64,000 nt of DNA, taken from NCBI RefSeq assembly GCF_016908315.1, contig NZ_JAFBDQ010000005.1:1-64000 (forward strand), written 5' to 3'. Position numbers and translations under genes: made by a program. This document shows, in pieces, positions 11,529 to 46,854 of the stretch. Source of the stretch: Halanaerobacter jeridensis. GTDB lineage: Bacteria; Bacillota; Halanaerobiia; Halobacteroidales; Halobacteroidaceae. Each line of letters begins with the position of its first letter. The stretch's first letter is position 1. The notes beneath the pieces are model-generated. The model was not told the origin of the DNA. It saw only the letters and a program-made list of their open reading frames with translations, and ran no database searches.

Positions 11529-11573
11529 AAATAAATTTCCTCCTTTAAAAAATATAATATAACAAAAGCAAAT

Positions 11574-11709: not shown

Positions 11710-11845
11710 TGCTTCTGATCGGTTAATAAAAAATAATCCCCAATAAAATTAAAACCCTCATTAAAATTTAGCATAATAATAAATACTCATATCAAACAAC
11801 TATAATTCGAATTATTTTATACTAATATTATATTCAACCTTACTT

Positions 11846-18034: not shown

Positions 18035-21000
18035 TTAATTTTTTAAACTACTACCAATCAACTTTAAATTTTCTCCAATGTTATTTAATTCATTGACCAC
18101 TTGGATTACTTTTTGCCCGTCTTGATTGGACTTTTTCTTACGGTAGATTTCTTTTATTTCCTGCCATCTTTCTTCTTTCTCTGCTGTCATCCGTCCAGTA
18201 ATTTCATGAAACTTTAACAAACTAGCTTCAGCATGAGTTGCTAAGGTCTGAGCATCATTAATATAACTATTAACTATCAACTTATCCAATTCATCTTCAT
18301 TCATAATCGGGACTACTTTTTCTACAATTTTATTCATATTCCGGTAAGACCCCTGCAGTTTAAATGGTGGTTCTGTTCTATAATCATCATTTTGCGAAGC
18401 AGATTTGATATATTCCATATTAACTCTTAGCACTTCATCTCTAATCTGGAGACAACTTTCTAATACCTTTTGGGCTTCTTCTAACTCTTCTTCAGTATAA
18501 CTACCCTGCAAATTCATTTCTTCTTGCGTCTTAGTTGTAATATCCTCTAATAGTTGATAGATATCTGTTTGATTTTTCATATAAATATTATTTAAATATT
18601 GATTAGACGTGATAGCATTTTCAATATAACTAAGTTTAAAAGCCGATTCATTTTCTCTTAACATATCACCTAAATTATAGACATCAGCCCGATTGGCTAA
18701 CATATCAGGAATCTTAAATTTATCTCCACTTTCAGTATAAGGGTTACCGCCCATTACTACAGCTACCTTTTTACCTCTAAATTGATAAGTTTTACTTTGG
18801 CCTTGATAGACACCATCTATCTTTCTCTGACCGTCGCATAAAGAGATAAACTTCTGTAAAAACTCAGGGTTAGAATGCTGGATATCATCTAAATAAATCA
18901 TCACATTATTACCAATCTCCAGGGCCAAATTCAACTTCGCGAGTTCCTCCCTCGCACTAGCATTTTCAGCTTCCGCCGGATCAAGTGAGGTTACCCCATG
19001 CCCAATTGTCGGACAATTGACTTTAACCAGCATCATACTTAAGCGGTTAGCCACATATTCCACCAAAGTCGTCTTCCCATAACCCGGCGGAGAAATCATC
19101 AACAGCATTCCCATGTTATCAGTCCGCTTATCTTTACCAGCCGTTCCAATCTGTTTAGCTAGATTATCACCAATTAACGGCAGATAAACTTTATCGATTA
19201 ATTTATTGCGGACAAAAGAAGTCAGCACACTCGGCTTTAAATCCTCAAAATTAAACCTACTTTTAAGTTCCGCAATTTTAGCAAACTTTAACTGCTGAAA
19301 CTCCTGATACTGGGGCACAATATTGTTTTTAAAATTATCTAACTTAGCTAAAAAATCCGTTAAGCTAATTTGATACTGCCCATTATCAAGCTGAGGATGA
19401 GTACCTACTAAATTATCAATCTCAATTTGCGATTCTTCATTAATTATACGCCGCTGCTCATAATCATCAACCATTAAAATAGATAATACTTCATCAACAT
19501 AATGATTAAAACTCACTTCTTCTTCATGTAAATAAGACTGCAGCCATTCACTAATTAAAATATACTTTCCTTCCAAATCATCTGCTAATTTTTCCACTGA
19601 ACTATCAAAATCACTTTTAGCACTCTTAGCAATTAGAAAATCAGCAAACTGCTGGTGGATTTCTGCTGCTTCTTTACTAATTGCAAAAGCCTCATTTTGA
19701 CTTATTTCTTTGGCTAAATATTCTGCTGTTTTGTGATACTGACTACATTTAATCCATTCATTATCTGCTGTAAATGATTTGATTTCAGCCGCTAAGATAG
19801 GGATAAAACTAGCCACTAACTCCCGCTGCGAATACTTAGCTATGACATTAACTGTTTTTAATCTCCGCTGCAACTTTTCTTTTTTCTCTGATGCTAAACC
19901 AAACTCCCAAAACAAGTTTGCTACTGCTCTAACTTGAGGACTGTAAGCTGCTAATTCTAATTCACGGTATTTCTCTACTACTGCCTTTAGTATTTTTCGT
20001 CCATCATGATCGTGAACTCCAGTGGTATAATATTCATTAGAATGCTGCTGCATATAATCTTTAATGATTTTAGTTAAAGCCTGCTCATCTTTTTGATAGA
20101 GGTTATCTAATTGATTTTGCTCCTCATATTTTTTAAAGATATTATAGGCTAAAAACTCAGCTCGGTAAACTTCTTTATTTTCAGAAATTACTTCCTGCTC
20201 CCACACCTGCTCGTAAGCACTAAATTCTTCTTGTTCAATCGCTTCCCAAAAGTCAGTACCGGAAATGTGAAAATAAAAGCCGTCATCTTTACGCATTAAA
20301 CTTAACTCAGCTTCTTGATTATTAACTAAGAAATGATGATTGCCGAGCTTAATTGTATTCTCATCTAAAAATAATTCCTGCTTATCTTTTAACTGCTTGA
20401 TACTAGTTTCCCTTAACGATTTAAGTTTGTTTTCAATATCATCTGCTTTGGTGCTCGCTCCAAGGTCAATTAATTCTGCAATAATATCTCTTATCTTATC
20501 AACCATTGGACTAGTAGATAGTAGTTCATTAATCTCTGCTACTTCATCACAAGAATGAACCCGATTCTTTAAACTTTTAAAAATTCTATCCGCCGCATTA
20601 CCTAAAGAATCAATTTTTCGATTCTTCTGTTCCATTAGCTGCTGCTTTTTAGCTTCAAAAGTAGATACTATCTCTTCTCTTTTTTCAGTCAGTAGCACTA
20701 TAAACTCATCAAATTCAGAAAATTTACTCTCTAACTCATCAATTTGGATAATAATTTTAGACATATATGATTCAGTTTTCTCAACAGTAGTTGATAGTTC
20801 TAAATAATTAGCTACAGAATGAGTTAAAAGATTTAACTTAGAATAAAACTCAGCTTCTTTCTCCTGCGCACTTAAATTATCTATTTTGTTTTTGAGCTGT
20901 GACTTGTGCTGATTTAAATTAGAGAATAACGCCGAAATTTTATCAATAATCACTGAAGTTTTAGTCGCATCTTTGATCTTTAGATTATTAACTATATTAA

Positions 21001-22909
21001 TTAACATTTCTAATTCTTCAGAGACTTTTTTTATCTTTTTATTTAATTCTTCACCATCTACTACTTTCTCAATCTCCGGTAATTTATCCTTAATTTCTTG
21101 TACTTCTTCTTGATAGGGTTTTAAACTATTCTCCTGCAGCAGGAAGTTAATACAATCTTGGGCCAAGGTCTCCTGCTTTTCCTTAATCTCTTCCGCTAAT
21201 TCCTCCACCTGCTCTTCTTCCATAAACTGCAGGTCCTTTAGCCCCGCTATTTCGCCTCTCACCTGTCTAATTTGCGTTAGATATTTGACAAAGTCATTAA
21301 TATTCTCAAAACTAGCATAGCTAATTGCTTTTGTAATCTTAGTTACTTTTTCCTTAACTTGCTGATACTGCTGCTCGGTGTTTTCCTTGATTTTGCTGAC
21401 CTTATCAAACTCTTTAATCGCAATTGCTCCTGCTTCTTTAATCTTTAGGAGAGACTCTTTAATCTTAAAAGCTTCCGGTTTATCAAGCCAGAAATAGTTA
21501 TTAATAATATTTTCGGCATCATTAACTATATCTACATACAAACCATAGTAACTGTCATCTTTTTTAGATAAATTATACAGCGAATAACAATCTGCCATGA
21601 CCCTAACTATCTGCTTATTGCCGATATTATATAGAAATTCATCACTTTTCTCTGCAGCATCAGTGCCTACTTCTTTACCAAAAGGCGTTTCCCAAATTTG
21701 GATCGTATGGTTCCGTTTCGCCTCTTGAGCGGCAGTAAAAATTATCATCTCTCCATTATCAAAATGAGTGTAGCCATTACACATAATCGGCGTCTCAATA
21801 TCTTGATGAATAATATTATAATTATGAATTGAATATTCACCAGTTACGCGGTCATAAAAAATATACTGATAGTCTTCTCCATTGAGCGAAGCCTTTTTAT
21901 TTTGAAAAACCATATTGGCATAATTTAACTGAAAACGCTTGAATTCTCCTGACTGCAGAAAAATACCGTCAGGAAAGATCAAGCCTTGGTCTTCTGGTAA
22001 TAAAACCACTGATTTACCAATCGAGTCTATGCGCTCTACTTCTTCTGTCTTTTCATTAAAGACAATATAACGATAATTCTCTTCTTGATAAGGTTTAATC
22101 TTTAGTAAAATAAAGTTACCTACTACAGCGTAAAAGATAGTTGCATCATCAAGCTTTTGGTCTTTCCGTTCTACTTCATCAGAATAAATTCCCTTCCCTG
22201 AATTTGTATTATTCTCTATTTTTAGGGTTACATCGCCATTAATAGTTTCTACAAACAAACGATCGTCAATTGAAATATGGGGATAAAGACCAGCCACCTG
22301 GTCTTCTCTTGTCGTTTCAATCCATTCAATCTCCTGTTGAGGTGGATAAGAGATCTCATGACTAAATCTATTTCCTAAGTATTCTATAGTTTGATTATCT
22401 TTAACTAACCACTTGAAACTTTTAATATCATCTACATTATCCCCGGTTTGAAAGACCATATACAGAAAACCGTTCTTTTCATAAAACTTAGCAAAAAAAC
22501 TTTCTTTATAGTATTGATACAACTCTTTAAAGTCTGCTTTAAAACTCTCATCATCCAGCAGCGTATAATCCGATTTAACAAATCTAGTCCCATTATACTG
22601 ATAAAGAGAAAAGACATCGCTTAATTTAGTTTCAGATTTTAGGCCTAAGTGCACATTATAACCTAAAATAACCTGCTCCCCAACCGAAACTATATCACGC
22701 GGTATACAACTATTTTCTGTTACAATTGCTTCACTATTCTTTAATTTATTCTTTGTTTCTCCATAGATTTCTATTCGCTTTTCTTCTAATTTAGTTAATT
22801 TTTCTTGCAATTCTTCCGCTCGTTCTACTAACCGGTTTCTAATCACATTATAAGAAGCAAAACTATCCTGTTTTTCTTCTGTTGTAGATTCTTTAGCCAC
22901 TTTAACCAC
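18035..22909 (-). CDS. giant AAA+ ATPase-domain protein (1624 aa)
   Basis: The C-terminal third contains Walker A LLMISPPGYGKTTLVEY and Walker B NVMIYLDDIQH. A long central coiled-coil and an N-terminal beta-rich region are also present. The start lies 1 nt after the stop of the flotillin-like gene. Confidence 0.75.
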   Translation of the reverse strand: MVKVAKESTTEEKQDSFASYNVIRNRLVERAEELQEKLTKLEEKRIEIYGETKNKLKNSEAIVTENSCIPRDIVSVGEQVILGYNVHLGLKSETKLSDVFSLYQYNGTRFVKSDYTLLDDESFKADFKELYQYYKESFFAKFYEKNGFLYMVFQTGDNVDDIKSFKWLVKDNQTIEYLGNRFSHEISYPPQQEIEWIETTREDQVAGLYPHISIDDRLFVETINGDVTLKIENNTNSGKGIYSDEVERKDQKLDDATIFYAVVGNFILLKIKPYQEENYRYIVFNEKTEEVERIDSIGKSVVLLPEDQGLIFPDGIFLQSGEFKRFQLNYANMVFQNKKASLNGEDYQYIFYDRVTGEYSIHNYNIIHQDIETPIMCNGYTHFDNGEMIIFTAAQEAKRNHTIQIWETPFGKEVGTDAAEKSDEFLYNIGNKQIVRVMADCYSLYNLSKKDDSYYGLYVDIVNDAENIINNYFWLDKPEAFKIKESLLKIKEAGAIAIKEFDKVSKIKENTEQQYQQVKEKVTKITKAISYASFENINDFVKYLTQIRQVRGEIAGLKDLQFMEEEQVEELAEEIKEKQETLAQDCINFLLQENSLKPYQEEVQEIKDKLPEIEKVVDGEELNKKIKKVSEELEMLINIVNNLKIKDATKTSVIIDKISALFSNLNQHKSQLKNKIDNLSAQEKEAEFYSKLNLLTHSVANYLELSTTVEKTESYMSKIIIQIDELESKFSEFDEFIVLLTEKREEIVSTFEAKKQQLMEQKNRKIDSLGNAADRIFKSLKNRVHSCDEVAEINELLSTSPMVDKIRDIIAELIDLGASTKADDIENKLKSLRETSIKQLKDKQELFLDENTIKLGNHHFLVNNQEAELSLMRKDDGFYFHISGTDFWEAIEQEEFSAYEQVWEQEVISENKEVYRAEFLAYNIFKKYEEQNQLDNLYQKDEQALTKIIKDYMQQHSNEYYTTGVHDHDGRKILKAVVEKYRELELAAYSPQVRAVANLFWEFGLASEKKEKLQRRLKTVNVIAKYSQRELVASFIPILAAEIKSFTADNEWIKCSQYHKTAEYLAKEISQNEAFAISKEAAEIHQQFADFLIAKSAKSDFDSSVEKLADDLEGKYILISEWLQSYLHEEEVSFNHYVDEVLSILMVDDYEQRRIINEESQIEIDNLVGTHPQLDNGQYQISLTDFLAKLDNFKNNIVPQYQEFQQLKFAKIAELKSRFNFEDLKPSVLTSFVRNKLIDKVYLPLIGDNLAKQIGTAGKDKRTDNMGMLLMISPPGYGKTTLVEYVANRLSMMLVKVNCPTIGHGVTSLDPAEAENASAREELAKLNLALEIGNNVMIYLDDIQHSNPEFLQKFISLCDGQRKIDGVYQGQSKTYQFRGKKVAVVMGGNPYTESGDKFKIPDMLANRADVYNLGDMLRENESAFKLSYIENAITSNQYLNNIYMKNQTDIYQLLEDITTKTQEEMNLQGSYTEEELEEAQKVLESCLQIRDEVLRVNMEYIKSASQNDDYRTEPPFKLQGSYRNMNKIVEKVVPIMNEDELDKLIVNSYINDAQTLATHAEASLLKFHEITGRMTAEKEERWQEIKEIYRKKKSNQDGQKVIQVVNELNNIGENLKLIGSSLKN

Positions 22910-22910
22910 C

Positions 22911-24950
22911 TTACTCCATTATCTTTTTAATTGGAGTATTAGCTAGCCCTAGCTCTTTAGCTTTACTTAACACATGATTTAATACAGTTTTCTTAGTACC
23001 AGTGGCGTCATTCATATAATTCATAATTGCACTAGAAATAGTTAAGTTCTTAATTGCTTCTGAATCTAAATTAAAACTATCAATTAAAGATTTAACCTCT
23101 TGTTTAAACTCGTCTCTATCTCCACTGAAAAATGTATCTTTAACATCAGTTAAGACATCAGAATTATCAACTAATCTATCTACCTGTTTTCCTCTCGTAA
23201 TCGAATTAATTAAGTTATCAAAGAACATAGACTCGCCACCGACAATATCCACATTAGCATTCTGTAAGCCGTCTTTCAGGATTTCAGCCTGCGCTTGGGC
23301 AATTTGAGGTTGGATATTGATTTCGGCTAACTCTATTTCTTTATCTTTATTTAATCTCAACTTGAATTCTTCGTGTTCTTTACCAACAGAGTCTAATCGT
23401 TTCATTGCTTCCGCTTTCTTATTAATCCCCTCTGCCTCTGCTACAGCTTTGCCTTTAACTACCTCTGCTTCAGATTCTCCTGTTAACTTGATTGCTTTAG
23501 CTTCTGCTTCAGCCTGCATTTCTTTCACTTTAGCTTGAGTAGCACCTTCTTTTTCAGACGCTTCAGCTTTAGCCTTCATCACTCGAGCATCAGAAATACC
23601 TTCTACAGCAGATTCTTCGGCATTAGCATCAGCCATAATCTTAATCGATTCTGCCTTTTTGCGCGAAGTCTTTAATTCAGTATCAGCCTTAATAACCTCT
23701 TTTTCAGCTAATTCCGATTCACTTTGCTTCTCTGCTTCCGCTAATTTAATCTTTTGCAGTGCCTCTACTTCTGCATCACCTTCTGCAGTAGTAATATTCA
23801 CATCTTTAGCCCGCTTAGCTGCTGCTAATTCTTTAGTATCTTTGATCTTTTCTTCTTCCTCAGCTACCGACTTTTCCACCATCACTCGTTCGCGAATTAC
23901 TTCCTGCATATCTTTCTTTTCTTTCTCTAAGTTCTTATCTTTTTCTATTTGGGCCAAAGAAACTACCTTTTCTCGTTCCGTCTTTTCAATTTCTTGTTCC
24001 TTAGTCACCCGCTCTTCTTCCACAGCTTCAGTCGCCTCTTTAGACTTTTTGGCAACAATTATCTGACGATCCTTATTCTCTTCTGCAATTGCGATTTCTT
24101 CATCAGTTTTAATTCTCGCATTTTCAGACTTTAATCTCTCTTCTTCTTCCACAGTCTTGATTTGCGCACTTTCTCTAGACTTCATATTAGCAATTTCTCG
24201 CTTCTGTTTTTCCTCTGCTTCAGCCTGCTGGCGTTCTAATTCTAAAACTGCCTCTTTAGCACTGACATCCTGTTTGACAATTGTTTTTTCTTTGTTGCGC
24301 TGAATTTCATTTGCTTCCATAGCCTGCGTAGCAGTTAATTCTGTAATCTTTTTAATTCCTTCTGAATCAAGGACATTATTTTCATCTAAGTAATCCAATT
24401 TTGTCTGTTCTAAGTAATCAATCGCTGCATCATCTAAGACATAACCATTTAAATCAGTGCCAATCACCTGTAAAATTTCTTCTTTAAAGGTATCTCGTTC
24501 TGTATATAATTGAGTAAAATCAAACTTCTTTCCTACAGTTTTTAGAGCTTCAGAAAACTTAGCATCAAAAAATCTCATTAACGTATCCGTATCAGAAGCT
24601 TTTTTAGTCCCTAAAGACTTTGCTACCCGCAGCACATCTTCTTCAGTATGGTTAACCCGCACGAAAAAAGCTACTTTAATATCAGCTCGTAAATTATCTT
24701 TACAGACCAACCCATCTTTGCCGTCACGATGAATCTCTACTCTTTTTACTGAAACATCCATTGTCTCCCAGCGGTGCAGGATAGGAACCATCCAAGTTCC
24801 AGTGAAAGAAACTTTCGCTCCCCCAATTCCATTTCTGACAATTGCTGTTCCCTGACCTACTTTCTTGTAAAATAAGAGTAATAATAAAGGAAATCCAATA
24901 AAAACAAGAAATAAAATACCTCCTACTACATACAACACCATCTCTAACAT
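22911..24950 (-). CDS. flotillin-like SPFH/Band-7 protein (679 aa)
   Basis: N-terminal TM helix, then an SPFH-like core (GTAIVRNGIGGAKVSFTGTWMVPILHRWETMDVSVKRVEI...), then a long E/K/A-rich coiled-coil as in YqiK/FloT-type flotillins. Confidence 0.8.
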   Translation of the reverse strand: MLEMVLYVVGGILFLVFIGFPLLLLLFYKKVGQGTAIVRNGIGGAKVSFTGTWMVPILHRWETMDVSVKRVEIHRDGKDGLVCKDNLRADIKVAFFVRVNHTEEDVLRVAKSLGTKKASDTDTLMRFFDAKFSEALKTVGKKFDFTQLYTERDTFKEEILQVIGTDLNGYVLDDAAIDYLEQTKLDYLDENNVLDSEGIKKITELTATQAMEANEIQRNKEKTIVKQDVSAKEAVLELERQQAEAEEKQKREIANMKSRESAQIKTVEEEERLKSENARIKTDEEIAIAEENKDRQIIVAKKSKEATEAVEEERVTKEQEIEKTEREKVVSLAQIEKDKNLEKEKKDMQEVIRERVMVEKSVAEEEEKIKDTKELAAAKRAKDVNITTAEGDAEVEALQKIKLAEAEKQSESELAEKEVIKADTELKTSRKKAESIKIMADANAEESAVEGISDARVMKAKAEASEKEGATQAKVKEMQAEAEAKAIKLTGESEAEVVKGKAVAEAEGINKKAEAMKRLDSVGKEHEEFKLRLNKDKEIELAEINIQPQIAQAQAEILKDGLQNANVDIVGGESMFFDNLINSITRGKQVDRLVDNSDVLTDVKDTFFSGDRDEFKQEVKSLIDSFNLDSEAIKNLTISSAIMNYMNDATGTKKTVLNHVLSKAKELGLANTPIKKIME

Positions 24951-25960: not shown

Positions 25961-26400
25961 TTTTTGTTTTTTCTGTTTTACTCTTCACTGATTATTATTT
26001 TTCTTGTTACTTTTTACTTGTTACTCTTTTCTTGTCACTGCTTTTTCTTGTTACTGCTTTACTCTTGCACTTGACTTTTATTTTGTGTCTCTTTACTGAT
26101 CACTGTTTTACTGTTTTTATGCTTTATTCTTGAATTTGACTTTTATCTTATCTCTTCACTGATTACTTGTTACTCATCACTGTTTTACTGTTGCACTTGA
26201 CTTTTATTTTGTGTCTCTTTACTGATCACTCATTACTCCTCACTTTTTTTTATCTCTTCACTGATTACTTATTATTGTTTTTCTATTTCACTGTCTTTTG
26301 TGTTTTTTACTGATTATTTGTTACTGATTACTCATCACTATTATTCTGCTTTACTCTTGTATTTGACTTTTATCTCTTCACTAGTCACTCATTACTAATT
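25961..26400 (-). repeat. strand-asymmetric modular degenerate repeat array (purine-rich on the minus strand)
   Basis: GCACTTGACTTTTATTTTGTGTCTCTTTACTGATCACT occurs at about 26067 and about 26192. TTTGACTTTTATCT..TCTCTTCACT(G/A)(A/G)T.AC occurs at about 26134, 26246 and 26362. The region is built from the words TCACT, TTACT and GATTAC. Stop codons are dense in all minus-strand frames. Confidence 0.7.
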
Positions 26401-27192
26401 ACTATTATTACCTTCGTATTTATTCAAACTAGCTGCCATTTTTCTCAAATTGACAATACTTAAATCTAATTCACTATCAGCATGTTGGGAAATTGTTTTT
26501 AACTTTGCTAATTTTATTTTCATATTATCTAAGTCTGTAATTGCTTGTTCATTAATTGAAAGATATTTATTAATTGCCTGCAATTCAGTTAAAATCATCT
26601 CTTTTTTCTCTTTTAATGAGTTAAGTTCATCTCCCATCTCTGCAGTTAACTCATCTTTAGTTTCTAGTAACTCAATTCTTGAATTAATATAATTAAGGTT
26701 AATATCCTCTATCGATTGATAAATATCTTTAACTTGGGCCAAATTATCTAAAATATTATAGTATACTTCTTCTGTGACCCTCATGAATTTTTGATAAGTA
26801 ATTCCGTTTTTATCTAATTTGATATCTAAAATATTCTTAAACTTTTCAAACTTTTCAATCACTCTTAATAATTGATTTAAAGCCAAACGAGCACTTTCCT
26901 GATAATGATTAGTATTTGTCAAATCACTAAATTGAGTCTTTAATTCAGCAATAAAGGAAATTATCTCCTGCTTATAAGAAACATTACCTGTTCGCATTTT
27001 ACTCTCATCTATATCTACTTTTAATTTTTCTTCTTTTTTATATCCATTGCTTAACGACAAATTTAGCACCTCCACTAATAAGGCACCTGCTAAAATCCCC
27101 CATCCAAACTGCTGCAGAGAGTCAACAAACAAAATGATTTCTACGCTCACTACAATTGGAACCAACTTTTGAATAAGCAATTTTTTAATCAA
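26395..27192 (-). CDS. membrane protein with a C-terminal coiled-coil (265 aa)
   Basis: Two N-terminal hydrophobic helices, then a helical region. The architecture reminds me of XpaC/TelA-associated proteins, but I cannot verify this. Confidence 0.45.
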   Translation of the reverse strand: MIKKLLIQKLVPIVVSVEIILFVDSLQQFGWGILAGALLVEVLNLSLSNGYKKEEKLKVDIDESKMRTGNVSYKQEIISFIAELKTQFSDLTNTNHYQESARLALNQLLRVIEKFEKFKNILDIKLDKNGITYQKFMRVTEEVYYNILDNLAQVKDIYQSIEDINLNYINSRIELLETKDELTAEMGDELNSLKEKKEMILTELQAINKYLSINEQAITDLDNMKIKLAKLKTISQHADSELDLSIVNLRKMAASLNKYEGNNSN

Positions 27193-28389: not shown

Positions 28390-29434
28390 ATGAACAAAAA
28401 TCAAAAAAATAATTTTAATAAATTTAATTTTACTTTGCGGACTTACTGCTATAATCTTAATTGCTTGTTCTAATCATCAATCACCTAATCATTCTAATAA
28501 AAACAATAATCTCTCTCCTACCCCACAAACACCAGCTAAAATTATTACAGCCCAAAAAGAATATAACTACCAAAAAATGCAGCAGGATATTAAACAACTA
28601 AGCAAACACTACGATTCTCTAGCTCTAAGTTCCTTCGGTAGATCACTAACTAATAAAAAACTATACCTGCTCAAATTAGGTACAGGTCCTAAAAAAATTA
28701 CAGTTGTCGGCGGTGTTCACGGTCGTGAAAGTATCACTTCATTACTGATTCTAAAATTAATTGAAGATCATATCCAAAAAGACAACATTGCTAACTATAA
28801 ATTAGATAATATTTTAAAAGAAATTAGTTTTTATTTTATCCCGATGCTCAATCCCGACGGGATTGAAATAGCTACTCAGGGCCTCACTAATATAAATTTA
28901 AAAAGCAAAGAATTTTATCTGAAAGCTAATGAAGGGAGTAATGACTTTCAACGTTGGAAAGCTAATGGACGAGGTGTTGACCTCAATAAACAATTTCCAG
29001 CTCATTGGGGAGAACTTAAATCAAAAACAGAGCCTCATTTTGCTCATTACAAAGGACCACGCCCTGAAAGCGAGCCGGAAAGTAAAGCTTTAGCAAACCT
29101 CACGCGGCAAGAAGATTTTGCTGCAGTAGTTGCTTTTCACAGTAGTGGGCAGGTCATTTATTGGTACTATAATCAAAGCAAGCAGCAGTACCACCACGAT
29201 TATCAGTTGGCCCAGAAATTAAGCCAAGCTGCCGGTTATAAACTAGTCTCACCACAAGAAAGTGATAAGTACGCAGCTGGATATAAAGACTGGTTTATCA
29301 AAGAATTCAAACGCCCTGGTTTTACTATTGAAATTGGTGAAAAAAATGGGGATAAATCTTTACCCTTTGACAACCTAGAACAATACTGGCACAATACACG
29401 GACTATTTTGCTTACTTTAGCTGCTAATATCTAA
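28390..29434 (+). CDS. M14 zinc carboxypeptidase-family lipoprotein (gamma-D-glutamyl-diamino-acid peptidase-like) with an apparent frameshift in A7 near the start
   Basis: HGRESITS, NPDG and FHSSG zinc and fold motifs lie in the ORF at 28577-29434. The same frame continues upstream through a lipoprotein signal (..ILINLILLCGLTAIILIACSNHQ). The only ATG with a context (28390) is out of frame by one base across the A7 run at 28403-28409. Confidence 0.7.
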
Positions 29435-29732
29435 TAAAAATGTTCGTCTACCCATTTTTATCTTTTTTTAGTTTTTTCTTTTTAAATTTTGAATTTACTC
29501 TTTACTTTTTATTTTTTAATTGTCACTCTTCACTAATTACAACTGGGCACTACCAGTTTCTCATTCTTTAAGAATACTTTGCCCAGGAGCAACTATTTTT
29601 ATTTGACCGCCAGTAGAACACATTAATTTAGAACCTTCCAATAAAGCAGACTGTTGACCAACTTTCACGTTTTCTTTCACCTTAGTCCATGGTGAGGGAA
29701 GACTAGGCGTACAAGAGCTTTCAGTAATTTTG

Positions 29733-29925
29733 CAATGACCTACTTGAAGGGCAAGCCCGTTCAGGTTTCTTCATTCATTGAAACGAGCCTAATCTAAACC
29801 TACCGAAATGGTAAGACAAATCAGGTCTTACAGTTTCTAGACCAGCCAAAAGACTGGTTGAGGCAACTTACAATGCCTCCAGAAGCTTGAATTCCCGTCA
29901 GCCCGACGGTATGTATTATATTTTA
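29733..29925 (-). ncRNA. predicted TnpB omega/right-end RNA scaffold (orphan copy)
   Basis: Near-identity to the segment between the tnpB stop and the right end of the full IS. This is by analogy to the known origin of TnpB guide RNAs in the IS right end. Expression was not assessed. Confidence 0.45.
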
Positions 29926-30087
29926 ACCCTTTTCTAATTTTATAGAGCAGCTTGGTTGTCGCTTACTCTTTATCGTAGGGTTTCATTTTTTTGACTTATA
30001 TTTAGTATATCTTATTTTAGAAATAATATTCAATTATTTCTAAAATGTTGTCATTTAACCCAAAGGCAAGCCCATTAGGGTTTTCTG
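29733..30087 (-). mobile_element. non-autonomous IS200/IS605-derived miniature element (PATE/MITE-like, 355 bp)
   Basis: Bases 29733 to about 29925 are about 95% identical by eye to the right end of the full IS at 44814 to about 45005. The left-end hairpin CCCAAAGGCAAGCCCATTAGGG resembles CCCAAGGGCAAGCCCGTTGGG of the full copy. Both copies are inserted 3' of TTGT on the minus strand. Confidence 0.8.
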
Positions 30088-30906
30088 ACAACTAATGCAA
30101 TAACATTTGCAATTAAATTACCACAGACTTTAGAATTATGTCCTGATACTACTTGTAATTGACTGGGGGTACTTCCAGCGCTACATTTCAGCCTTGCACC
30201 AGAACAGACATACAACTGACCTCCTCCACTAGAACTTCCTTGACTATTACCGCCGCTATTATTTTTGCTCGTCTGACTATAACTTGCTCTATTATTACTG
30301 TTCCTATTAGTTGCTGCACCTTGTTTTCCTTTCTCTTTCTCACTACTGCTACCAACACTAGCAGCAACTTGACCTTGAGCTTTACTTTGTTCTTTGTTTT
30401 GCTGCTTTTTATTTTCTTCTTTTTCTTCCGGAAAGACTATCTTATCGCCTCGGTAAATCCATAAAAAATTATTTTTTATTCGTTTTTCTTCTTTTAAGTA
30501 TTGATTTTCTTTCACTCCTAGTACTGCACCTTTAGTATCTTCTTCTTCCGCACTTTGCTCAAATATCTTTCCTTGCTCTAAATAATAAGGAGCAGGTTTA
30601 TCTAGCCACAAACCATAATCCCCTTCTTTAAAATCATCAATTAAAGCCCAATTTAATTCATTATTCTGATCTAAATATAACATCACTAAGTTACCATCTT
30701 CTTTACGGTATTTATTATCATATTGATCTTTATAATCTATATCTTCTTCCTCTGTTTCTTTAATCCCCGGGCCAATCAAATTGCCATTAATCTTAATTTT
30801 AGTTTTTCTTTTTTCTAAATCAATATTAATTTCACGCTCATCTTTAGCTAGTTTAGTCTTTTGATATTCATTCTTTCCTGTCATTTTACCCCACCCTCAA
30901 ATAATT

Positions 30907-33900
30907 TTAAGCATAACAAATTAGTTTATCCCTTTCTTTACGATTGAATTTAGAATTAGCTCCAGCTATTTCATCAATCCTATTAAGCGGTAATTTAATT
31001 CCATAATCACCGTTCCGAAACTTCTTAATCATTATCTTCCACTGCTGATTCGAACCATATTTAATTACTAAATCATACTTGTCGTCATAACAATTTTGGC
31101 TATACTCACAATATAAAGTGGCCGTTTTATATTTCTTGACTTTAACTTCATAAAAAGTCTTTATTCCATAAGTATTACCATCTGAATTAGCTATTCTTTT
31201 CAGCTTAGGTAACTGCTTAAAATTAAGTTCAGCTAAATTATGCAGTTGTCCAAATAATTTTAGTAGGATCTTGCCGCTGCCGTCTGATTCCATAACGACG
31301 CCGTTAAAACTACTTGTTCCTTCATCTTCTCGTTTGTAAGTTGGAGTTGATTCTCCGTTATAAAATATATATTGGTCTGGTGACTGACCTCGGTTATCTT
31401 GAAACTTGAATTTAGCATGGTTCAGACCGTAGTCTCCATTTTCAAAACCATTAATTAATAAGGCATTGTTATAGTCACCAAAATTAATTACTAAATTGCC
31501 CAGCTCTTTTAGATAAGTAAAAGTGATCTTATCACCATTTAAACAGACATTTTTTTGCGTATCCTTTGCAACTTCAGTCTTACTTAATAAACTAGCTGCA
31601 TCCCTATAGTCCTGCTTTCCAAACTTCAGCAGTATCTTTCCACTGCCGTTACTTTCCTCTTCTACAGTATTATTATGCTGCCAAAAACCGCTGCTGCCTG
31701 CAGTAAATTTATATTCACAGTTACTTCTATCCAGTTGGACTACCAAATTCCGACTGCCGTAGAGGACTGTGGCATAATTAACTACTTCATCTTCAAGATC
31801 GTATCTTCTCCTACTACCGTATAACACATCTTCCGGCACGATAAATTCTAAACCAAAGTCACCATATTGATAGTTATCTATTATGACTTTACCGCCGTAC
31901 TTAGAAAAGTACTGTTTGTTATTGCCAAAACTTGCCCCATAACTATAATTAACTTCTACAGTAGACTCTTCAGGAATATAAGCATAATAAAAGCCGAACT
32001 TATCCGTGAATTCATACTTTAATTTATTCTCTATAAGTTCTACTTCATTTTTAAATTCTAAGTCTTGACCTAATAACTTCTGCTCGCCATTCGGTAGAGC
32101 AATTTTCAATCCATCACCACTAATTTTAGAGTTTTCCTGTTGGCGGTGGGCATAAATCTCATAATACTGCAGTTCTCTGATTCCATCATCAACTATCTCC
32201 GCCTCTAAACTACCTTCTACTCTATGTACACGCGGGAGATAGATGCCATAATCTCCATTCACAAACTCATCTATTCTTGTCCTATTTAACTTTTCTGTCG
32301 TAAATTCAGTCACACCATCTTTAGTTGCGCTTGGCCCGTAATAAGCAATCAGTACGTTTTCTTCTGGTTGACTAAAATTAGGCTGTAAGTGATATTCTAC
32401 TTTAAAATCTTGCTCTGCAAATACTTCTTCATATATTTCAGTGCCATAATACTTATCTTCATCTTCTTTTAGATTATTTAAATACTCCTCTTGAATCTCA
32501 ATTTTCTTTCCTAACTGTACTTCATTAATTATGATATCAGTCTGGGGATCACTGTCTTGATTATAAGTATCTATTTGGCCCATGCCCATCACAAACTCAA
32601 ACGGATCTCTTTGAGACTTACTATTCTCTTCTAGTTTACTGCTGCCAAATAAATTATGCCTATTTGGTGGAGCCGTAATGTTCATTTTTATCTGTTGGGA
32701 AGAATTAGTAATTGGAGTGCTGTGGTAGATTGTTTCTTCCTCCTGCGTTACCCCTGCTGTCCCTAAGAATAACTGCTTGATGTTTCCAGATGATGACCAG
32801 CGCCATAATTTTTTCCTGTCTTGTTCATCTATTTTCTTTAGTTGCGCTAAAATAGCAGTATCTAAGCTATACTCACTATTATTTTCATCAATTACTATTG
32901 TATATTTACATTCATTATAAATAGTTATTAATATTTTTAGCAAAGAAGACTCCTCTATTGTTATCCATTCTTCATTTAAATCCTGGTTAATATTATTTTT
33001 AGTAACTTCATCTAACTTCCGACCTTGCTGTTTAACACTATTAAATAAAGTTGCCTTAGATAATTTAAATAAATTATCTTGAAAAGTTTCTTCAGTCTTC
33101 TTTCTACTAGCTGATTTATATTTTAAATATAACTCTTCTAATTCTTTTAAATCATTACCATCATCAGTTATTTCTAAAATTATATATTTTATTATTGAAC
33201 GCAAATAATCATAACTCAAACTATCTGTTAACTCTCCGATTTCTGCTGTCCCGCCTTTATAATTTTCTGGTTCTCCTATGTTACCTTTCTTTTCTAATAA
33301 TATATAAGGGTAAAATATATTAACACCATGCTGCTTAGCTAATTCTAATTCTTCTCCTCCTATTTCACCTGCCCCATCTTTAAGAGAACCTTCTTCTATT
33401 AAATCCGAATATTTTATTTCGCTATTATCTTTAAATTCTTTATCTACTAAATAGCAGTTACCTACATGCTTAAAAATTGTTCCCGTAATATCATAAGAAT
33501 TAGCATAATTTTGGAGATTTGACTTATCCAATTTTTTATATTTTTCAGCAAAACGTAATTTTCTATTTGCAAGTTCAAATGCTATCTCTTCTAATTCCTC
33601 AGCCTCTTCAATCGGCATAATTAAAGATAAACCAGATTCTTTTATCAAACTATCCTCTATTAATGCTTGTTTATAATCTTTCTGCAGTGCTAATAACTGC
33701 TCAGTAAATTGATCAGTATCACTAATATCTTCAAATTGTTGATAACCCTCACTAAGCAACTCATCTTTTAAGTTGTCAATCTTACCTTGGAGTAAACTTT
33801 TTTTATTTAAATCATTATTCAACTCCATCTGATAAGTAAATTGATTATAATCTCCTGCTTCCATTCTCTCTTCAATTGCTTTGATTTCTTGCTTGAACTT

Positions 33901-35025
33901 TTTTACTTTATCTGCTGCTTCATCAATCATATCTAATCTATGTTTTACTAATTCTCTAATAAATTTAATCCTATCTATTTCCGGAATTCCTGCCTCATTC
34001 TTTTTTACAAATTTAGAATTTATACTAGTTCCTTGAATAATATCTGACTTTTGAATTTCCTGATAGACCCTCTTATCAAGTTCATCTCTTAAGTCTCTTT
34101 CCCCTATTAAAACTTTATTAACTAAAAAGAGCAAAGCATCCTTATAGCCTAAAAACTCATTACCATAGAAATTCTTAAAATGTTTAATTCCAATTCCATT
34201 CCACGTCTTACAATAAACATGATGACCATTCCCTTGAGCCATAACTGCTGCATACTGAGCTAATCCTCCAGCTAAGGAATGTCCAGTGAAAGTGAAAGAG
34301 TAATTCTTATATTCCGAATGATCTTTTAAAATAAGTTTATAAAAATTTTCTGCCTTATCAAATTGCTCACTAGGAATACCAGCAGCAATCAAAGAATTAG
34401 TCATTGTATGATCTCTAGTTTCATTTGTCCCCCGATAAGCAATGATTATTTCTTTATCACCTTCATTTACAAAAGCTGCTGCATAAAATCCATCGCCTGC
34501 ACCTAAATCTCCTTCCAAGAACTTATCTATTTTACTATAAACTAAATCTTCTAATTGATTGACCAACGCCCAATTAGTCAAATTAAAAGAAATTGCCGCT
34601 TTATTTAATTTTGCTAGCACAGGTAACAGAGGTACTTGTTTTATAACTAATGATAATACATCCGGGTCAGTTCCTGCATCGATCATAGGACCTGCTTGAC
34701 CCATTACAAAATTCATAATTACAGATTTTATTTTATAAAATAAATTATTTGGCTCTTCTTTTCTTTCTAAATTATTTTCTCCATCTTTCATTAAAAATTT
34801 CCAATTACTTAATTGATCATAGTTAGTATAATTAACTTCCAATCTATTCTTTCTATATTTGGGATCATCTTTAAATCTATTTTCCGCTGAATTAAAAAAT
34901 ATTTCTTCTATAGTAGAATTTTCATCTCCCCCATCCGCTTTTTTACCATTATAAAAATCTTCATAAACCATATCACTAAAAATCAAACTTAAATAATCAT
35001 TTGCTTTTGGCTTTTTTCCACTCAT
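30907..35025 (-). CDS. large class-3 lipase-domain protein with C-terminal GDYG repeat modules (1372 aa); toxin-like
   Basis: Alpha/beta-hydrolase serine motif FTFTGHSLAGGLAQYAAV, preceded by IIIAYRGTNETRD. No signal peptide. The repeated modules end in FVNGDYGIYL, YQYGDFGLEF, FENGDYGLNH and FRNGDYGIKL. The same module (FKEGDYGLWL) is in the downstream DUF4280 protein. Confidence 0.7.
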   Translation of the reverse strand: MSGKKPKANDYLSLIFSDMVYEDFYNGKKADGGDENSTIEEIFFNSAENRFKDDPKYRKNRLEVNYTNYDQLSNWKFLMKDGENNLERKEEPNNLFYKIKSVIMNFVMGQAGPMIDAGTDPDVLSLVIKQVPLLPVLAKLNKAAISFNLTNWALVNQLEDLVYSKIDKFLEGDLGAGDGFYAAAFVNEGDKEIIIAYRGTNETRDHTMTNSLIAAGIPSEQFDKAENFYKLILKDHSEYKNYSFTFTGHSLAGGLAQYAAVMAQGNGHHVYCKTWNGIGIKHFKNFYGNEFLGYKDALLFLVNKVLIGERDLRDELDKRVYQEIQKSDIIQGTSINSKFVKKNEAGIPEIDRIKFIRELVKHRLDMIDEAADKVKKFKQEIKAIEERMEAGDYNQFTYQMELNNDLNKKSLLQGKIDNLKDELLSEGYQQFEDISDTDQFTEQLLALQKDYKQALIEDSLIKESGLSLIMPIEEAEELEEIAFELANRKLRFAEKYKKLDKSNLQNYANSYDITGTIFKHVGNCYLVDKEFKDNSEIKYSDLIEEGSLKDGAGEIGGEELELAKQHGVNIFYPYILLEKKGNIGEPENYKGGTAEIGELTDSLSYDYLRSIIKYIILEITDDGNDLKELEELYLKYKSASRKKTEETFQDNLFKLSKATLFNSVKQQGRKLDEVTKNNINQDLNEEWITIEESSLLKILITIYNECKYTIVIDENNSEYSLDTAILAQLKKIDEQDRKKLWRWSSSGNIKQLFLGTAGVTQEEETIYHSTPITNSSQQIKMNITAPPNRHNLFGSSKLEENSKSQRDPFEFVMGMGQIDTYNQDSDPQTDIIINEVQLGKKIEIQEEYLNNLKEDEDKYYGTEIYEEVFAEQDFKVEYHLQPNFSQPEENVLIAYYGPSATKDGVTEFTTEKLNRTRIDEFVNGDYGIYLPRVHRVEGSLEAEIVDDGIRELQYYEIYAHRQQENSKISGDGLKIALPNGEQKLLGQDLEFKNEVELIENKLKYEFTDKFGFYYAYIPEESTVEVNYSYGASFGNNKQYFSKYGGKVIIDNYQYGDFGLEFIVPEDVLYGSRRRYDLEDEVVNYATVLYGSRNLVVQLDRSNCEYKFTAGSSGFWQHNNTVEEESNGSGKILLKFGKQDYRDAASLLSKTEVAKDTQKNVCLNGDKITFTYLKELGNLVINFGDYNNALLINGFENGDYGLNHAKFKFQDNRGQSPDQYIFYNGESTPTYKREDEGTSSFNGVVMESDGSGKILLKLFGQLHNLAELNFKQLPKLKRIANSDGNTYGIKTFYEVKVKKYKTATLYCEYSQNCYDDKYDLVIKYGSNQQWKIMIKKFRNGDYGIKLPLNRIDEIAGANSKFNRKERDKLICYA

Positions 35026-35178
35026 TGATCTCCTCCTCTGTAATTAAATAATTATTTCTATAACTATTTTTTATCTCTTCTATTTCTTTTTTATATCCCT
35101 CCCAACCAGTTTTTGAAATGCAATCCTCTTGAATATCACTAACAGAATTGATTTTTTTATAATCTTCACTTCTAATTT

Positions 35179-35934
35179 TTAAGTTATATTTTTTTCTGCC
35201 ATGTATATTCTAGCTCTACTATACTTTGCATGACCATCATAACCATCTTTCATTAAATCTATGTCATTACTAAATACATCTGTCGCATTCAGTAACCAAT
35301 TTACATCTATATCTTTAAATAATTCTCCTCTATATATATAAATATATATGCCTGACCTCTTTAAATCTTGTCCTTCTAGCTTTTCTTTGAGTCGTAAAAC
35401 ACTTCTTAAAAAATTTTCTTTATCTTTTTTTATTACATTTTTAAATATGTGAATATGCGGCAATATATAAGTGTTTTCGTGATCTTCTTCAAATAATTCT
35501 TTTTGGGAAGGAATATGGTCCCAATTTGAATAAGTACCCCCATTAACATAAAAAACTTTTTTTTCATAAGGAAAAAGGTCTTCAATCATATTTTCGTAAT
35601 ATTGATTAATATTGTGCCCTACTCGTCTTCTCCCATATCTATCCCAAACTGAATTACCGTATTTATGACCGCCTGTCCGAGCTTCAAATACAAATTCTTT
35701 ATCATCCACTGGATTACAATAAGCTACATAAACATTTGTCTCACTTATGTATCTCATCTTTTTCATCTCAAATTTTTCATGATAACCACTTTCTAAGTTT
35801 TCTTTTATCCGTTGATATATCTCAGGATAATCTCGCTTAGGATTTCTGGTGACACTTGGTTGAAAACTACAGCCCATAATGCTAATCATTAACAATAATA
35901 AAATCAACATTTTCTTTATTCCATTTACTTTCAC
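35179..35934 (-). CDS. lipoprotein of unknown function (251 aa)
   Basis: Signal peptide with lipobox MKVNGIKKMLILLLLMISIMGC. It lies directly upstream of the lipase-domain gene on the same strand. Confidence 0.6.
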   Translation of the reverse strand: MKVNGIKKMLILLLLMISIMGCSFQPSVTRNPKRDYPEIYQRIKENLESGYHEKFEMKKMRYISETNVYVAYCNPVDDKEFVFEARTGGHKYGNSVWDRYGRRRVGHNINQYYENMIEDLFPYEKKVFYVNGGTYSNWDHIPSQKELFEEDHENTYILPHIHIFKNVIKKDKENFLRSVLRLKEKLEGQDLKRSGIYIYIYRGELFKDIDVNWLLNATDVFSNDIDLMKDGYDGHAKYSRARIYMAEKNIT

Positions 35935-43263: not shown

Positions 43264-43493
43264 CTTTCTTCCCCCGCATCTTGGGCCAAATCTCTAAAAG
43301 CAGCTAAAGTTTCCTGGGCTGCAGATTGATTTAACTTTTGAATCGCACATCCCGAATGAAGCAGCACATAGTCTCCTACCTCTACTTCCGAAATCAAAGT
43401 AATATTGACTGTCTTTCTAACTCCTTTTACTGCTCCTACAGCCTCTGTATCATTAACAATTTCTATAACTTTAACCGGCACAGCAATACACAT
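43260..43493 (-). CDS. hypC: hydrogenase maturation protein HypC
   Basis: 77 aa beginning MCIAVPVKV. It overlaps hypD by 4 nt. Confidence 0.85.
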   Translation of the reverse strand: MCIAVPVKVIEIVNDTEAVGAVKGVRKTVNITLISEVEVGDYVLLHSGCAIQKLNQSAAQETLAAFRDLAQDAGEER

Positions 43494-44813
43494 TACAAAT
43501 GACCCCTCTCTTGATAATTAGCTACTGCTAATTGTCCTACTGCTAAGCCCTCATCAGTACAAGGAATCTTATGAGGTAGATGAACTTTAAATCCCCCAGC
43601 TGTTAACTTGCGATAAACCTCAATCAATAAGATCTGATTCTGCCATACCCCTCCACTTAATACTACATGATCTAATTTGAATTGTAGTCGCAATATCTCA
43701 CATAACCTAACACTAAAATTAATCACTGTATTATGAAATTTACGAGCAATCATACCTGCATCTACTCCCGCTCTTAAATCAGCAGCAATTTCTTTTATCA
43801 AAGTGGTAATCAAAATCTGATACTGACCTGCTCTCTTGCTGATTTGATAATTATAACTATCATTATTATTAACAGTTTGAGCTGCAGTTTCTAACTTAAG
43901 AGCAGCCTGCCCTTGATAACTCCTTTTTAAACACAATCCTAATAGAGCTGCTACTGCCGCAAATAATCGTCCAAGACTAGAAGTAAGAGGACAATTAATA
44001 TCTTGTTCTAACATTTGCTCTACTGCAGCTAATTTATCAGGCTTTATTTGAGACATATTTTGAGTAAAGATTTCAGTTACTTCTATTCCCGCCTGGTGGA
44101 GATAACTAACTGCCATCCGCCATGGTTCCTTAACTGCTTGATCTCCGCCGGGTTGAGCTACATACTGCAAATGACCTACACGCATAAAATCACTATAATC
44201 ACAAATAAAAAACTCCCCCCCACAAGTGACCATCAGTTCCTAAACCTACTCCATCAAAAGCAATTCCAATCACCGGTTGTTGGAGTTGATGTTCAACCAT
44301 AGAACTGACTAAATGGGCATGATGATGCTGCACTGCTATCTTCTCACCTGGTAATTGCTGAGCATAATGAGTAGAATAATAACCCTCATGTAAATCATGA
44401 ACAATTAACTCCGGTTCTATATCATACAACTGCTCTAAATGTTCAATATTATCTTGATAACGTTGGTAAGTCTCTAAGTTACTTAGACTGCCTGTGTACT
44501 GACTTACAAAAGCAAATTCTCCTTTGCTGAGACAGAATGTATTCTTTAAATCTCCTCCACAGGCCAAAGTAGCTACCTCTGAGCTTACTTTAATCACTTG
44601 TGGTGCAAAACCACGGCCGTGTCTAATTACTCGTTCATGACCAAGGGCTACATTGGTTACTGCATCATCTACCGGCACCTCTATCTTGCGATTATGTAAT
44701 AAACAGTAGTCAGCTACTGCAGTTAATTCTTCTCCTGCTCTTTGATTAGTATATTCTAACGGTAGTCCACTTAAATTTCCACTTGTCGCTACTAATACAT
44801 CAAGTCCATGGGC
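43493..44813 (-). pseudogene. hypF: hypF, C-terminal (Kae1-like) part, itself frameshifted
   Basis: ..AHGLDVLVATSGNLSGLPLEYTNQRAGEELTAVADYCLLHNRKIEVPVDDAVT.. then ..GLGTDGHLWGG, with a frame change in the C7 run at 44215-44221 (G7 on minus), then EFFICDYSDFMRVGHLQYVAQPGGDQAVKEPWRMAVSYL... The first codons of the ORF-track ORF 44199-44855 derive from the IS right end. Confidence 0.8.
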
Positions 44814-45047
44814 CAATGACCTACCTGAAGGGCAAGCCCGTTCAGGTTTCTTCATTCATTGAAACGAGCCTAATCTGAACCTACCGTAAATGGCAAGACA
44901 AATCAGGTCTTACAGTTTCTAGACCAGCCAAAAGACTGGTTGAGGCAACTTACAACGCCTCCAGAAGCTTGATTTCCCGTCAGCCCGACGGTAAATATGT
45001 TTTTTATGAGCTTCACGAAAAGTCCGTTAGGACTTGTAGGATGTGGA
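44814..45047 (-). ncRNA. predicted TnpB omega/right-end RNA region
   Basis: A structured, comparatively GC-rich 234 bp lies between the tnpB stop and the IS right terminus, and is conserved in the orphan copy. By analogy to characterised TnpB systems the guide would be read from the flank beginning at 44813. The boundaries are not determined. Confidence 0.45.
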
Positions 45048-46181: not shown

Positions 46182-46197
46182 AATTTGACCTCATTCC

Positions 46198-46756: not shown

Positions 46757-46854
46757 TTTATTTGCTCCTTTAACACATATTATCCCACAATAGATTATAT
46801 ATTATGTGAATAGTTGTGTTCTTGACCCAAGGGCAAGCCCGTTGGGTTTTTTAC

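Follow-up and report, generated by a model that had tools for sequence, protein, structure and literature searches.

The first 64,000 nt of contig NZ_JAFBDQ010000005.1 of Halanaerobacter jeridensis (assembly GCF_016908315.1, positions 1-64,000; this whole stretch is referred to as the window, and all coordinates are window-based) contain three co-oriented open reading frames (ORFs) on the minus strand, encoding in order a lipoprotein-like protein, a 1372-residue protein with a predicted lipase domain (the putative effector), and a protein in which a repeat module shared with the effector is joined to a DUF4280 (PAAR-like) domain (the putative carrier). From comparison with their relatives, we think it probable that these genes make up a partly decayed polymorphic-toxin cassette of a rare kind, found almost only in the Halanaerobiales, an order of salt-loving anaerobes, and that the effector is coupled to a PAAR-like spike tip through the shared module, which we refer to as GDYG and which appears to be a previously undescribed connector between effector cargo and carrier. 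Identical proteins are already on record under Halanaerobacter jeridensis, and the Halanaerobiales are diderm Firmicutes with a lipopolysaccharide outer membrane (PMC5007114). The genes and their parts are as follows.

35179-35934, minus strand: lipoprotein-like ORF, 251 aa as annotated (ORF call)
34997-35194, minus strand: out-of-frame continuation of the lipoprotein, last ~63 codons (tblastn)
30907-35025, minus strand: effector ORF, 1372 aa, intact (ORF call)
34264-34284, minus strand: GHSLAGG nucleophile elbow with Ser250 (motif, effector aa 248-254)
32230-32550, minus strand: GDYG module 1, effector aa 826-932, ending FVNGDYGIYL (HMM E=1.4e-13)
31837-32148, minus strand: GDYG module 2, effector aa 960-1063, ending YQYGDFGLEF (HMM E=6.9e-11)
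31411-31650, minus strand: GDYG module 3, effector aa 1126-1205, ending FENGDYGLNH (HMM E=2e-14)
30985-31272, minus strand: GDYG module 4, effector aa 1252-1347, ending FRNGDYGIKL (HMM E=2.1e-18)
30075-30884, minus strand: truncated carrier ORF, 269 aa (ORF call; alignment with intact homologues P0002-P0015)
30597-30812, minus strand: carrier GDYG module (part of the 269-aa ORF)
30426-30596, minus strand: conserved post-module domain of the carrier (part of the 269-aa ORF)
30219-30425, minus strand: Gly/Ser/Asn/Gln linker of the carrier (part of the 269-aa ORF)

Across the six reading frames of the window there are exactly five instances of the motif GD[YF]G[ILV], four of them in the effector (residues 924, 1055, 1197 and 1339, within the C-terminal 450 aa) and one in the carrier ORF (residue 88). 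The conserved unit is larger than the motif, with a core of ~45-55 aa that conforms to 'Y.K...GNL.I.Y......L.I..F.NGDYG(I/L).L' and is often preceded by a strand of the form '(S)NG.GKI.I.G..IG'. Within the window, a hidden Markov model (HMM) of the module recognises these two genes alone (E=2e-53 and 2e-19; the hit that follows them has an E value of 0.4), and BLASTP comparison of the carrier with the effector aligns the module core (E=2e-6) with effector module 3 as its best partner. A first-pass annotation, made from the letters of this DNA, had described four modules in the effector and one at the N-terminus of the next protein; motif count, HMM and BLASTP all bear this out and indicate that the sharing is not due to chance.

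The GDYG module has no counterpart among the families of Pfam, NCBIfam or PHROGs, and a word-indexed protein search with a 55-aa module alignment returned no matches. Exhaustive HMMER searching of 1.84 billion cluster representatives with a 55-position module profile (cut-off E<=1e-3) recovered 27 representatives containing the module, nearly all of them from the Halanaerobiales; the named sources are Iocasia fonsfrigidae, Selenihalanaerobacter shriftii, Halanaerobacter, and a single Fusobacteriota metagenome-assembled genome (MAG). With so few members in so large a collection the module does not qualify as a widespread repeat of cell-wall proteins, one of the findings that the first-pass annotation had named as telling against its proposal. 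Two RTX proteins, P0038 (E=2.9e-6) and P0044 (E=9.3e-4), lie in the tail of the profile search and share only the '..I.NF.NG.FGI.L' end of the module, over ~20-27 profile positions. We regard this as motif-level likeness to spacer segments in these two proteins and reject RTX membership of the module; the effector and the other window proteins contain no RTX nonapeptides, no HemolysinCabind (PF00353) match and no Pfam secretion signal. Cpn10/GroES and pYEATS matches in the family libraries were weak and sub-threshold and were set aside.

In the relatives, the module lies almost always at the junction between a variable cargo and a spike component. Scanning of one genome per GTDB species identifies 11 GDYG-DUF4280 loci, all in the Halanaerobiales and with up to three in a genome, and in these, as well as in L001 (a metagenomic locus and the closest three-gene orthologue), L021 and others, the GDYG-DUF4280 gene is nearly always located directly 3' of a gene for a large variable protein. 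These upstream partners are phospholipase-like (window and L001), contain Ntox44 (L009 and L011; E~1e-19), or have no recognised domain, and most of them end in one or more GDYG modules, which are sometimes degenerate; L003 has the phospholipase-like cargo and the lipoprotein and lacks the carrier gene. Three architectures recur: large proteins in which a variable N-terminal part is combined with 2-5 modules at the C-terminus, short proteins with an N-domain and DUF4280, and single polypeptides in which cargo, module(s), LysM, carrier N-domain and DUF4280 are all combined (P0020, P0023, P0027, P0029, P0040, P0025, P0036, and ORFs in L010 and L016). A further cargo class has a different large N-terminal region with LysM (P0020-P0029), and the phospholipase-like, Ntox44 and LysM classes are all found with GDYG modules and/or DUF4280, the pairing of a conserved carrier with variable toxin domains that typifies polymorphic toxins. 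When the products of neighbouring genes appear elsewhere as one fused protein, this is a classical sign of functional coupling. No GDYG-DUF4280 genes were found in 2.9 million IMG/VR viral contigs.

The lipase cargo family encounters spike components in three different ways. In the 1090-residue phage protein P0018 the lipase domain is fused directly to a C-terminal gp138-type central-spike domain, and the gene is situated in a myovirus tail/baseplate set whose other genes include Baseplate_J and those for tail terminator, sheath-like and tube proteins; the same phage is represented in IMG/VR. In Orenia marismortui, P0019 (865 aa) is followed by a 1143-aa protein with homologous cargo in which the nucleophile has been lost (GDGLGG), and here one GDYG module (aa 612-666) connects the cargo to a spike domain (aa 675-1142) that shares 64% identity with a neighbouring 480-aa protein. 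This 480-aa protein has an above-threshold match to Phage_GPD (1.6e-7) and is related to PDB chain 7b5h_AJ, 'All3320' (E=3.5e-5), from the structure of the Anabaena contractile injection system. The third way is that of the window and L001, with GDYG modules on the cargo and on a separate GDYG-PAAR-like protein. Gene adjacency, the cargo-carrier fusions, the link to a VgrG-like domain in Orenia and the phage spike fusion all favour an adaptor or cargo-loading role for the shared module, as had been suggested from the window alone.

We also note that the Orenia locus (L007; KB900620.1, 4224-22598) encodes a 142-aa protein with a sub-threshold TssD/Hcp match (E=0.011), two lipoproteins, two lipase-family proteins, two VgrG-like proteins, and four large proteins (431, 229, 879 and 720 aa) with no detectable family. 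PHROGs and PDB searches with the family-less Orenia neighbours gave only the VgrG-like match and the sub-threshold TssD match, and the locus may belong to an undescribed injection-related system.

From N- to C-terminus the effector consists of a phospholipase-like alpha/beta-hydrolase domain, a middle region that is helical and conserved, and the four GDYG modules. The class-3 lipase motif GHSLAGG that had been noticed in it is present at residues 248-254, and the accompanying Pfam Lipase_3 (PF01764) match passes marginally (E=9.3e-5; score 22.8 bits, cut-off 22; 36 residues only). A Pfam match to Mbeg1-like/DUF2974 is weaker and under its cut-off; the identical protein carries the precomputed database annotation PF26363 (Phospholipase-like) and the NCBI name DUF2974, and the best PDB sequence matches are weak ones to fungal class-3 lipases (E=0.09). 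P0017 (1365 aa) is related over its full length (76% aa identity), and the N-terminal ~780 aa are homologous to the phage spike protein P0018, Orenia P0019 and the Orenia 1143-aa protein, and to these three other relatives only. Alignment of the effector with P0017, P0018 and P0019 shows that YRGT, the GHS(L)xGG elbow, D512, H520, D528 and H566 are invariant, the last four being candidate acid and His partners of Ser250. Judged by eye, the effector lacks a signal peptide.

The carrier gene is interrupted within its DUF4280 segment by a miniature insertion sequence (IS) element, a second and full-length member of the same family being present elsewhere in the window. The relevant segments are these.

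30099-30218, minus strand: DUF4280 profile positions 1-37 of the carrier, after which the ORF runs into the inserted element (Pfam)
29733-30097, minus strand: miniature IS200/IS605-family element, 365 bp, inside the DUF4280 gene (ends match the IS at 44814-46861)
29561-29732, minus strand: displaced 3' DUF4280 part, profile positions 56-109 and stop codon (Pfam E=9.8e-14)
44814-46861, minus strand: full-length IS200/IS605-family element, in hypF (Pfam on tnpA and tnpB)

The carrier opens with one GDYG module that is followed by a Gly/Ser/Asn/Gln-rich linker to DUF4280, as alignment and HMM comparison confirm. The DUF4280 assignment of the first-pass annotation also holds, but an intact GDYG-DUF4280 protein is not encoded, because the ORF ends at 30075 and the gene is split. 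As annotated, the ORF scores only 15.6 bits against DUF4280 (PF14107), for which the cut-off is 26.3, and matches positions 1-37 only; a downstream fragment in a different frame (29564-29731) matches positions 56-109 with 52.3 bits (E=9.8e-14), and an artificial join of the two halves scores 72.3 bits (E=5.9e-20), making the DUF4280 ancestry of the gene clear at the sequence level. When the gene is aligned at the nucleotide level with its intact L001 orthologue, 40 bp prove to be absent between the two halves, which would encode (M)DYQAMTNVQSFGY(C); of these residues M, D, N, F, G and C (MD..N..FG.C) are invariant in the carrier family, with one conserved Cys among them. This 40-bp loss shifts the frame, and precise excision of the element would therefore still leave the carrier gene broken. 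In DUF4280/PAAR-like proteins conserved cysteines coordinate a metal ion (PMC5349215, PMC5014421), and the window carrier does not retain this set, one Cys being deleted and the others split over two frames.

The intact carrier homologues P0002-P0015 are 280-351 aa long and share four parts: a GDYG N-domain of ~100-150 aa, a second conserved segment with the consensus 'APY.IE.G...VL.L.EN.FLK.E.RIK..FLWI...E.IVFP', then a linker of low complexity, and DUF4280 at the C-terminus. One of these, P0008, is an intact 280-aa GDYG-DUF4280 protein from the same species and is a paralogous carrier; if the effector is still delivered, it could at most be so with a paralogous carrier of this kind. With the carrier and lipoprotein genes damaged and the effector gene alone intact, the window cassette probably does not function in delivery. 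The earlier annotation overlooked both the carrier disruption and the lipoprotein frameshift.

The lipoprotein begins MKVNGIKKMLILLLLMISIMGC, which by eye contains a signal peptide and lipobox. The gene has a frameshift at a run of seven A residues near position 35185 where the orthologues imply eight, which could be a homopolymer sequencing error; tblastn with the L001 and L003 lipoproteins shows that the C-terminus continues in another frame to ~34997, and this out-of-frame end overlaps the start of the effector gene, as it does in the orthologues. The protein belongs to no family in Pfam, NCBIfam or PHROGs, and Pfam and NCBIfam reveal no sequence relation to known Tli families. Homologues are present directly upstream of every related lipase gene in five contexts (the window, L001, L003, L007 and phage L006), consistent with the immunity or accessory role that had been proposed; L007 has a pair of them, each showing a signal peptide and lipobox when inspected by eye, and in phage L006 they are split remnants. 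Upstream of the other main cargo class there is a different, unrelated family of ~350-385 aa, and only at the Ntox44 loci L011 and L013 does a small ORF (165-166 aa) follow the toxin. Since the lipoprotein is probably exported and the accessory gene co-varies with cargo type, immunity fits better than a role as a cytoplasmic chaperone, and we infer that the lipoprotein is a candidate immunity protein for the lipase effector. A precedent is Tli3, the immunity protein of the T6SS (type VI secretion system) phospholipase Tle3, which is an outer-membrane lipoprotein (PMC9860674).

These features suggest a scheme in which the effector would be a large cytoplasmic protein with no signal peptide whose cargo is the N-terminal class-3-lipase/phospholipase-like hydrolase, and whose C-terminal GDYG modules would dock on the GDYG-containing N-domain of the DUF4280 protein encoded directly downstream. 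The PAAR-like cone would cap a trimeric spike, VgrG-like or gp138-like, on a contractile machine that would resemble a phage tail and have its genes elsewhere; firing would take the lipase across the outer membrane of a neighbouring cell, where it would attack membrane phospholipids, and the exported lipoprotein from the upstream gene would shield sister cells. A broader and more tentative proposal is that GDYG acts as a coupling domain by which a range of toxins are held on spikes of the PAAR-like and VgrG-like kinds, and that it possibly marks an uncharacterised contractile or phage-tail-like system in diderm Firmicutes and perhaps in Fusobacteriota.

PAAR-like DUF4280 proteins are present in Firmicutes with no recognised T6SS or extracellular contractile injection system (eCIS), which raises the question of the machine that fires them. 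Firmicutes DUF4280 (PAAR_H2) and Phage_GPD modules have been noted as orphans with no eCIS or T6SS genes (PMC8651086), and an as yet unknown system for translocation, phage-like in nature, has been suspected for the DUF4280 proteins (PMC8651086, PMC5349215); on the broader proposal, the system marked by GDYG would be this one. GDYG would provide a sequence-defined connector with which to approach this question: it is seen split between two genes, fused within one, and fused to a VgrG-like domain between cargo and spike, and it could be used both as a marker for listing new effectors and as bait for the machine. The family also adds the lipase and lipoprotein as a candidate antibacterial effector-immunity pair in outer-membrane Firmicutes. 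With the window copy damaged, the intact relatives (the Iocasia fonsfrigidae and Selenihalanaerobacter cassettes and metagenomic locus L003) are better suited to experiments.

Several observations weigh against a delivered toxin. Pfam searches with ~30 neighbouring ORFs identify no sheath, tube, baseplate or T6SS membrane-complex gene in the window, in agreement with the first-pass annotation, which saw no secretion-system genes; neither is there a machine gene within 10 kb of any related cassette, the surroundings of 12 cassettes containing housekeeping genes only, and spike or tube hints nearby occur in Orenia alone (the two VgrG-like proteins and the sub-threshold TssD/Hcp match). A systematic survey found only type I and type Vb secretion systems (T1SS and T5bSS) in the Halanaerobiales (PMC4793230), and our literature search found no paper linking this order to T6SS or contractile injection systems. 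The Lipase_3 score just clears its threshold, and lipase activity is a prediction. AlphaFold2 models are mediocre, with a poor model of the carrier N-domain (predicted local distance difference test, pLDDT, of 58) and a moderate all-beta model of the four-module region of the effector (pLDDT 68.5, predicted template modelling score, pTM, of 0.55); these models match no known fold and lend no structural support to a docking role. Immunity genes are usually downstream of their toxins, as in the polymorphic toxin systems where they follow immediately, and the lipoprotein gene is upstream in the window and in the other lipase cassettes. Two of the three cassette genes are damaged, and in L001, a close relative, a different IS divides the effector gene; the cassette may be dispensable or decaying.

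This last point leads to the view, which we think unlikely, that the locus is simply a dead relic in which all three genes are heading for loss, the intact ORF has no function, and the shared module reflects duplication ancestry only. The interrupted and deleted carrier, the frameshifted lipoprotein, the destruction of hypF in the same IS-rich genome, the TnpB element within the L001 effector and the missing carrier gene of L003 would all be expected of it. Against this, the 4.1-kb effector ORF is still open, is 76% identical to an intact orthologue and has kept its catalytic motif, which points to recent or continuing selection; the same species has the intact paralogous carrier P0008, the lipoprotein shift could be a sequencing error, and decay of the window copy would not account for the GDYG family as a whole. 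It is quite unlikely that the cassette is instead the remnant of a prophage or tailocin tail tip, in which the lipase would be a virion enzyme for envelope penetration and the lipoprotein would function in phage self-protection or superinfection exclusion, with no interbacterial pair. The only context with an identifiable machine is indeed the myovirus baseplate module of P0018, where lipase and gp138-like spike are joined and split lipoprotein homologues lie just upstream, and gp5.4 of phages is related to DUF4280 and PAAR proteins (PMC5349215). However, phage structural genes are absent from the vicinity of the cassette in the window, L001, L003, L019, L021 and L022, the IMG/VR contigs yielded no GDYG-DUF4280 genes, and both the variable cargo, including the dedicated toxin domain Ntox44, and the presence of several paralogous cassettes per genome suit a polymorphic toxin system better.

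We consider it very unlikely that the GDYG modules are generic extracellular beta-repeats or stalk units, possibly associated with Ca2+ or the cell wall and exported by a non-injection route such as T1SS, with DUF4280 having a role unrelated to a spike tip. The two large RTX proteins in the tail of the module search, the peptidoglycan-binding LysM domains in many GDYG family members, and the report of T1SS but not T6SS in the Halanaerobiales (PMC4793230) are in keeping with that idea. The RTX likeness is nonetheless confined to the short end segment described above, the window proteins have none of the RTX or secretion signatures and no signal peptide by eye, and the module is found consistently at junctions with PAAR-like or VgrG-like domains, direct fusions included. 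All three alternatives are less well supported than a toxin cassette whose effector is coupled to a PAAR-like spike tip.

Such a cassette shares features with several known systems without coinciding with any of them. The closest parallel for the carrier is Francisella IglG (PMC5014421, PMC5349215), which also has a C-terminal DUF4280 domain, together with an extension of its N-terminus proposed as an adaptor, in this case one that binds IglF. The IglG extension is however a short, Francisella-specific alpha-helix, whereas that of the carrier is a mostly beta domain of ~150 aa with a module that is repeated in the cargo, and IglG is part of a full T6SS island, whereas the GDYG cassettes have no machine genes alongside and the window carrier is disrupted. 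Among T6SS lipase effectors, the class-3-lipase TseL/Tle2 and the Tle3-Tli3 pair (PMC9860674) resemble the cassette in having a GxSxG effector with no signal peptide, an adjacent exported lipoprotein candidate, linkage to a spike-complex gene and a host with an outer membrane. Sequence comparison detects nothing in common between the window proteins and the Tle and Tli families except the generic lipase core, the immunity candidate is upstream, the effector is much larger and has four novel C-terminal modules, and no T6SS has been reported in the Halanaerobiales (PMC4793230).

Specialised ('evolved') PAAR and VgrG effectors and PAAR-Rhs polymorphic toxins (PMC8651086, PMC7376260) likewise place variable toxins on or beside a conserved spike tip, with fused and split forms coexisting and several cassettes in a genome, but the GDYG fusions are in the reverse order, with cargo N-terminal and DUF4280 C-terminal, and the connector is GDYG rather than Rhs/YD repeats or the adaptors DUF4123, DUF1795 and DUF2169. 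The orphan Firmicutes DUF4280 (PAAR_H2) and Phage_GPD modules (PMC8651086) similarly have no adjoining sheath, tube or baseplate genes, and the Orenia cassette has Phage_GPD-like spikes; the GDYG module, lipase cargo and lipoprotein partner are absent from the descriptions in that survey, and members of the GDYG family come only from diderm lineages, namely the Halanaerobiales and a single Fusobacteriota MAG. Finally, phage gp138-type central spikes (PF18352), as in P0018, have the same phospholipase-like domain and middle region with lipoprotein homologues upstream, but in P0018 the cargo is fused straight to the spike beta-helix with no GDYG or DUF4280, and a complete baseplate gene set is present.

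The element inserted in the carrier gene has the attributes of an IS200/IS605-derived miniature element: it shares its ends with a full-length IS, has subterminal hairpins, and is inserted 3' of a fixed motif with no target duplication. Over its 3' ~190 nt it matches the right end of the IS at 44814-46861 with 93-96% identity, and its left end is ~76% identical to the left end of that IS, which is likely, by sequence, to be the parent; the left end also resembles a solo end at 56423-56518. All three left ends are preceded by GTTATTG, a candidate target or transposon-adjacent motif, and both complete copies, the miniature element and the full IS, terminate in GGTCATTG. The hairpin motif GGGCTTGCCC is present at both ends of the miniature element, which is strongly structured (z=-5.2), as might be expected of a TnpB guide-RNA scaffold. 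We considered whether the insert might be a group I intron or an IStron and rejected this: there is no Rfam match at E<=10 on 29400-30300, removal of the insert leaves a frameshift, and the ends match an IS605-type element.

The full-length IS encodes tnpA (46198-46602; Y1_Tnp, 1.5e-40) and tnpB (45048-46181; OrfB_IS605 and Cas12f1-like_TNB by Pfam), and interrupts hypF (43493-47434), from which positions 1-109 of the YrdC-like domain are missing beside the insertion; hypF contains an additional frameshift near 44200-44233. A flanking deletion accompanies both of the window insertions that have a right end. The solo left-end remnant at 56423-56518 is located on the opposite strand between two LysM-repeat genes and is 76% complementary to 30009-30104. 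In metagenomic locus L001 it is the effector gene and not the carrier gene that is split, by a different, TnpB-only IS605-type element (5843-7162); independent IS hits in the cassettes of two relatives may reflect chance in IS-rich genomes or counter-selection.

Other genes in the window include a Gabija-like pair, a DUF3686 ATPase, and chemotaxis and hydrogenase-maturation genes. In the region 1499-11714 there are seven copies of a ~135-nt element, starting at 1499, 2503, 4314, 8126, 8747, 9858 and 11575, with conserved ends ATAACGTCCCTGGGnTTCGCGACGTC ... CTAGATGTCGCTAAGCCCATGTTAT; as single-stranded DNA each forms an imperfect hairpin of 19-22 bp that is interrupted by bulges of one base. 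The elements separate small gene cassettes, including the Gabija-like OLD/TOPRIM and UvrD pair (4490-7997), and the array (1499-11714, together with 12761-13801) adjoins a tyrosine recombinase with Phage_integrase and Phage_int_SAM_4 domains. The best solved relative of this recombinase is the Vibrio integron integrase IntI4 (2a3v, 1.2e-39), in a near tie with a XerC-like protein and with the IntI-specific insert region unaligned, and by sequence the region looks like an integron-like cassette array with defence genes in a Firmicute. A 1624-aa DUF3686/DUF7902/AAA ATPase and a following 679-aa protein with no family (18035-24950) adjoin AT-rich repeat spacers (25999-26406) and are possibly another defence system. 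A fluoride riboswitch (crcB motif) is located at 53702-53770 on the minus strand, scoring 48.7 bits, above the Rfam gathering score.

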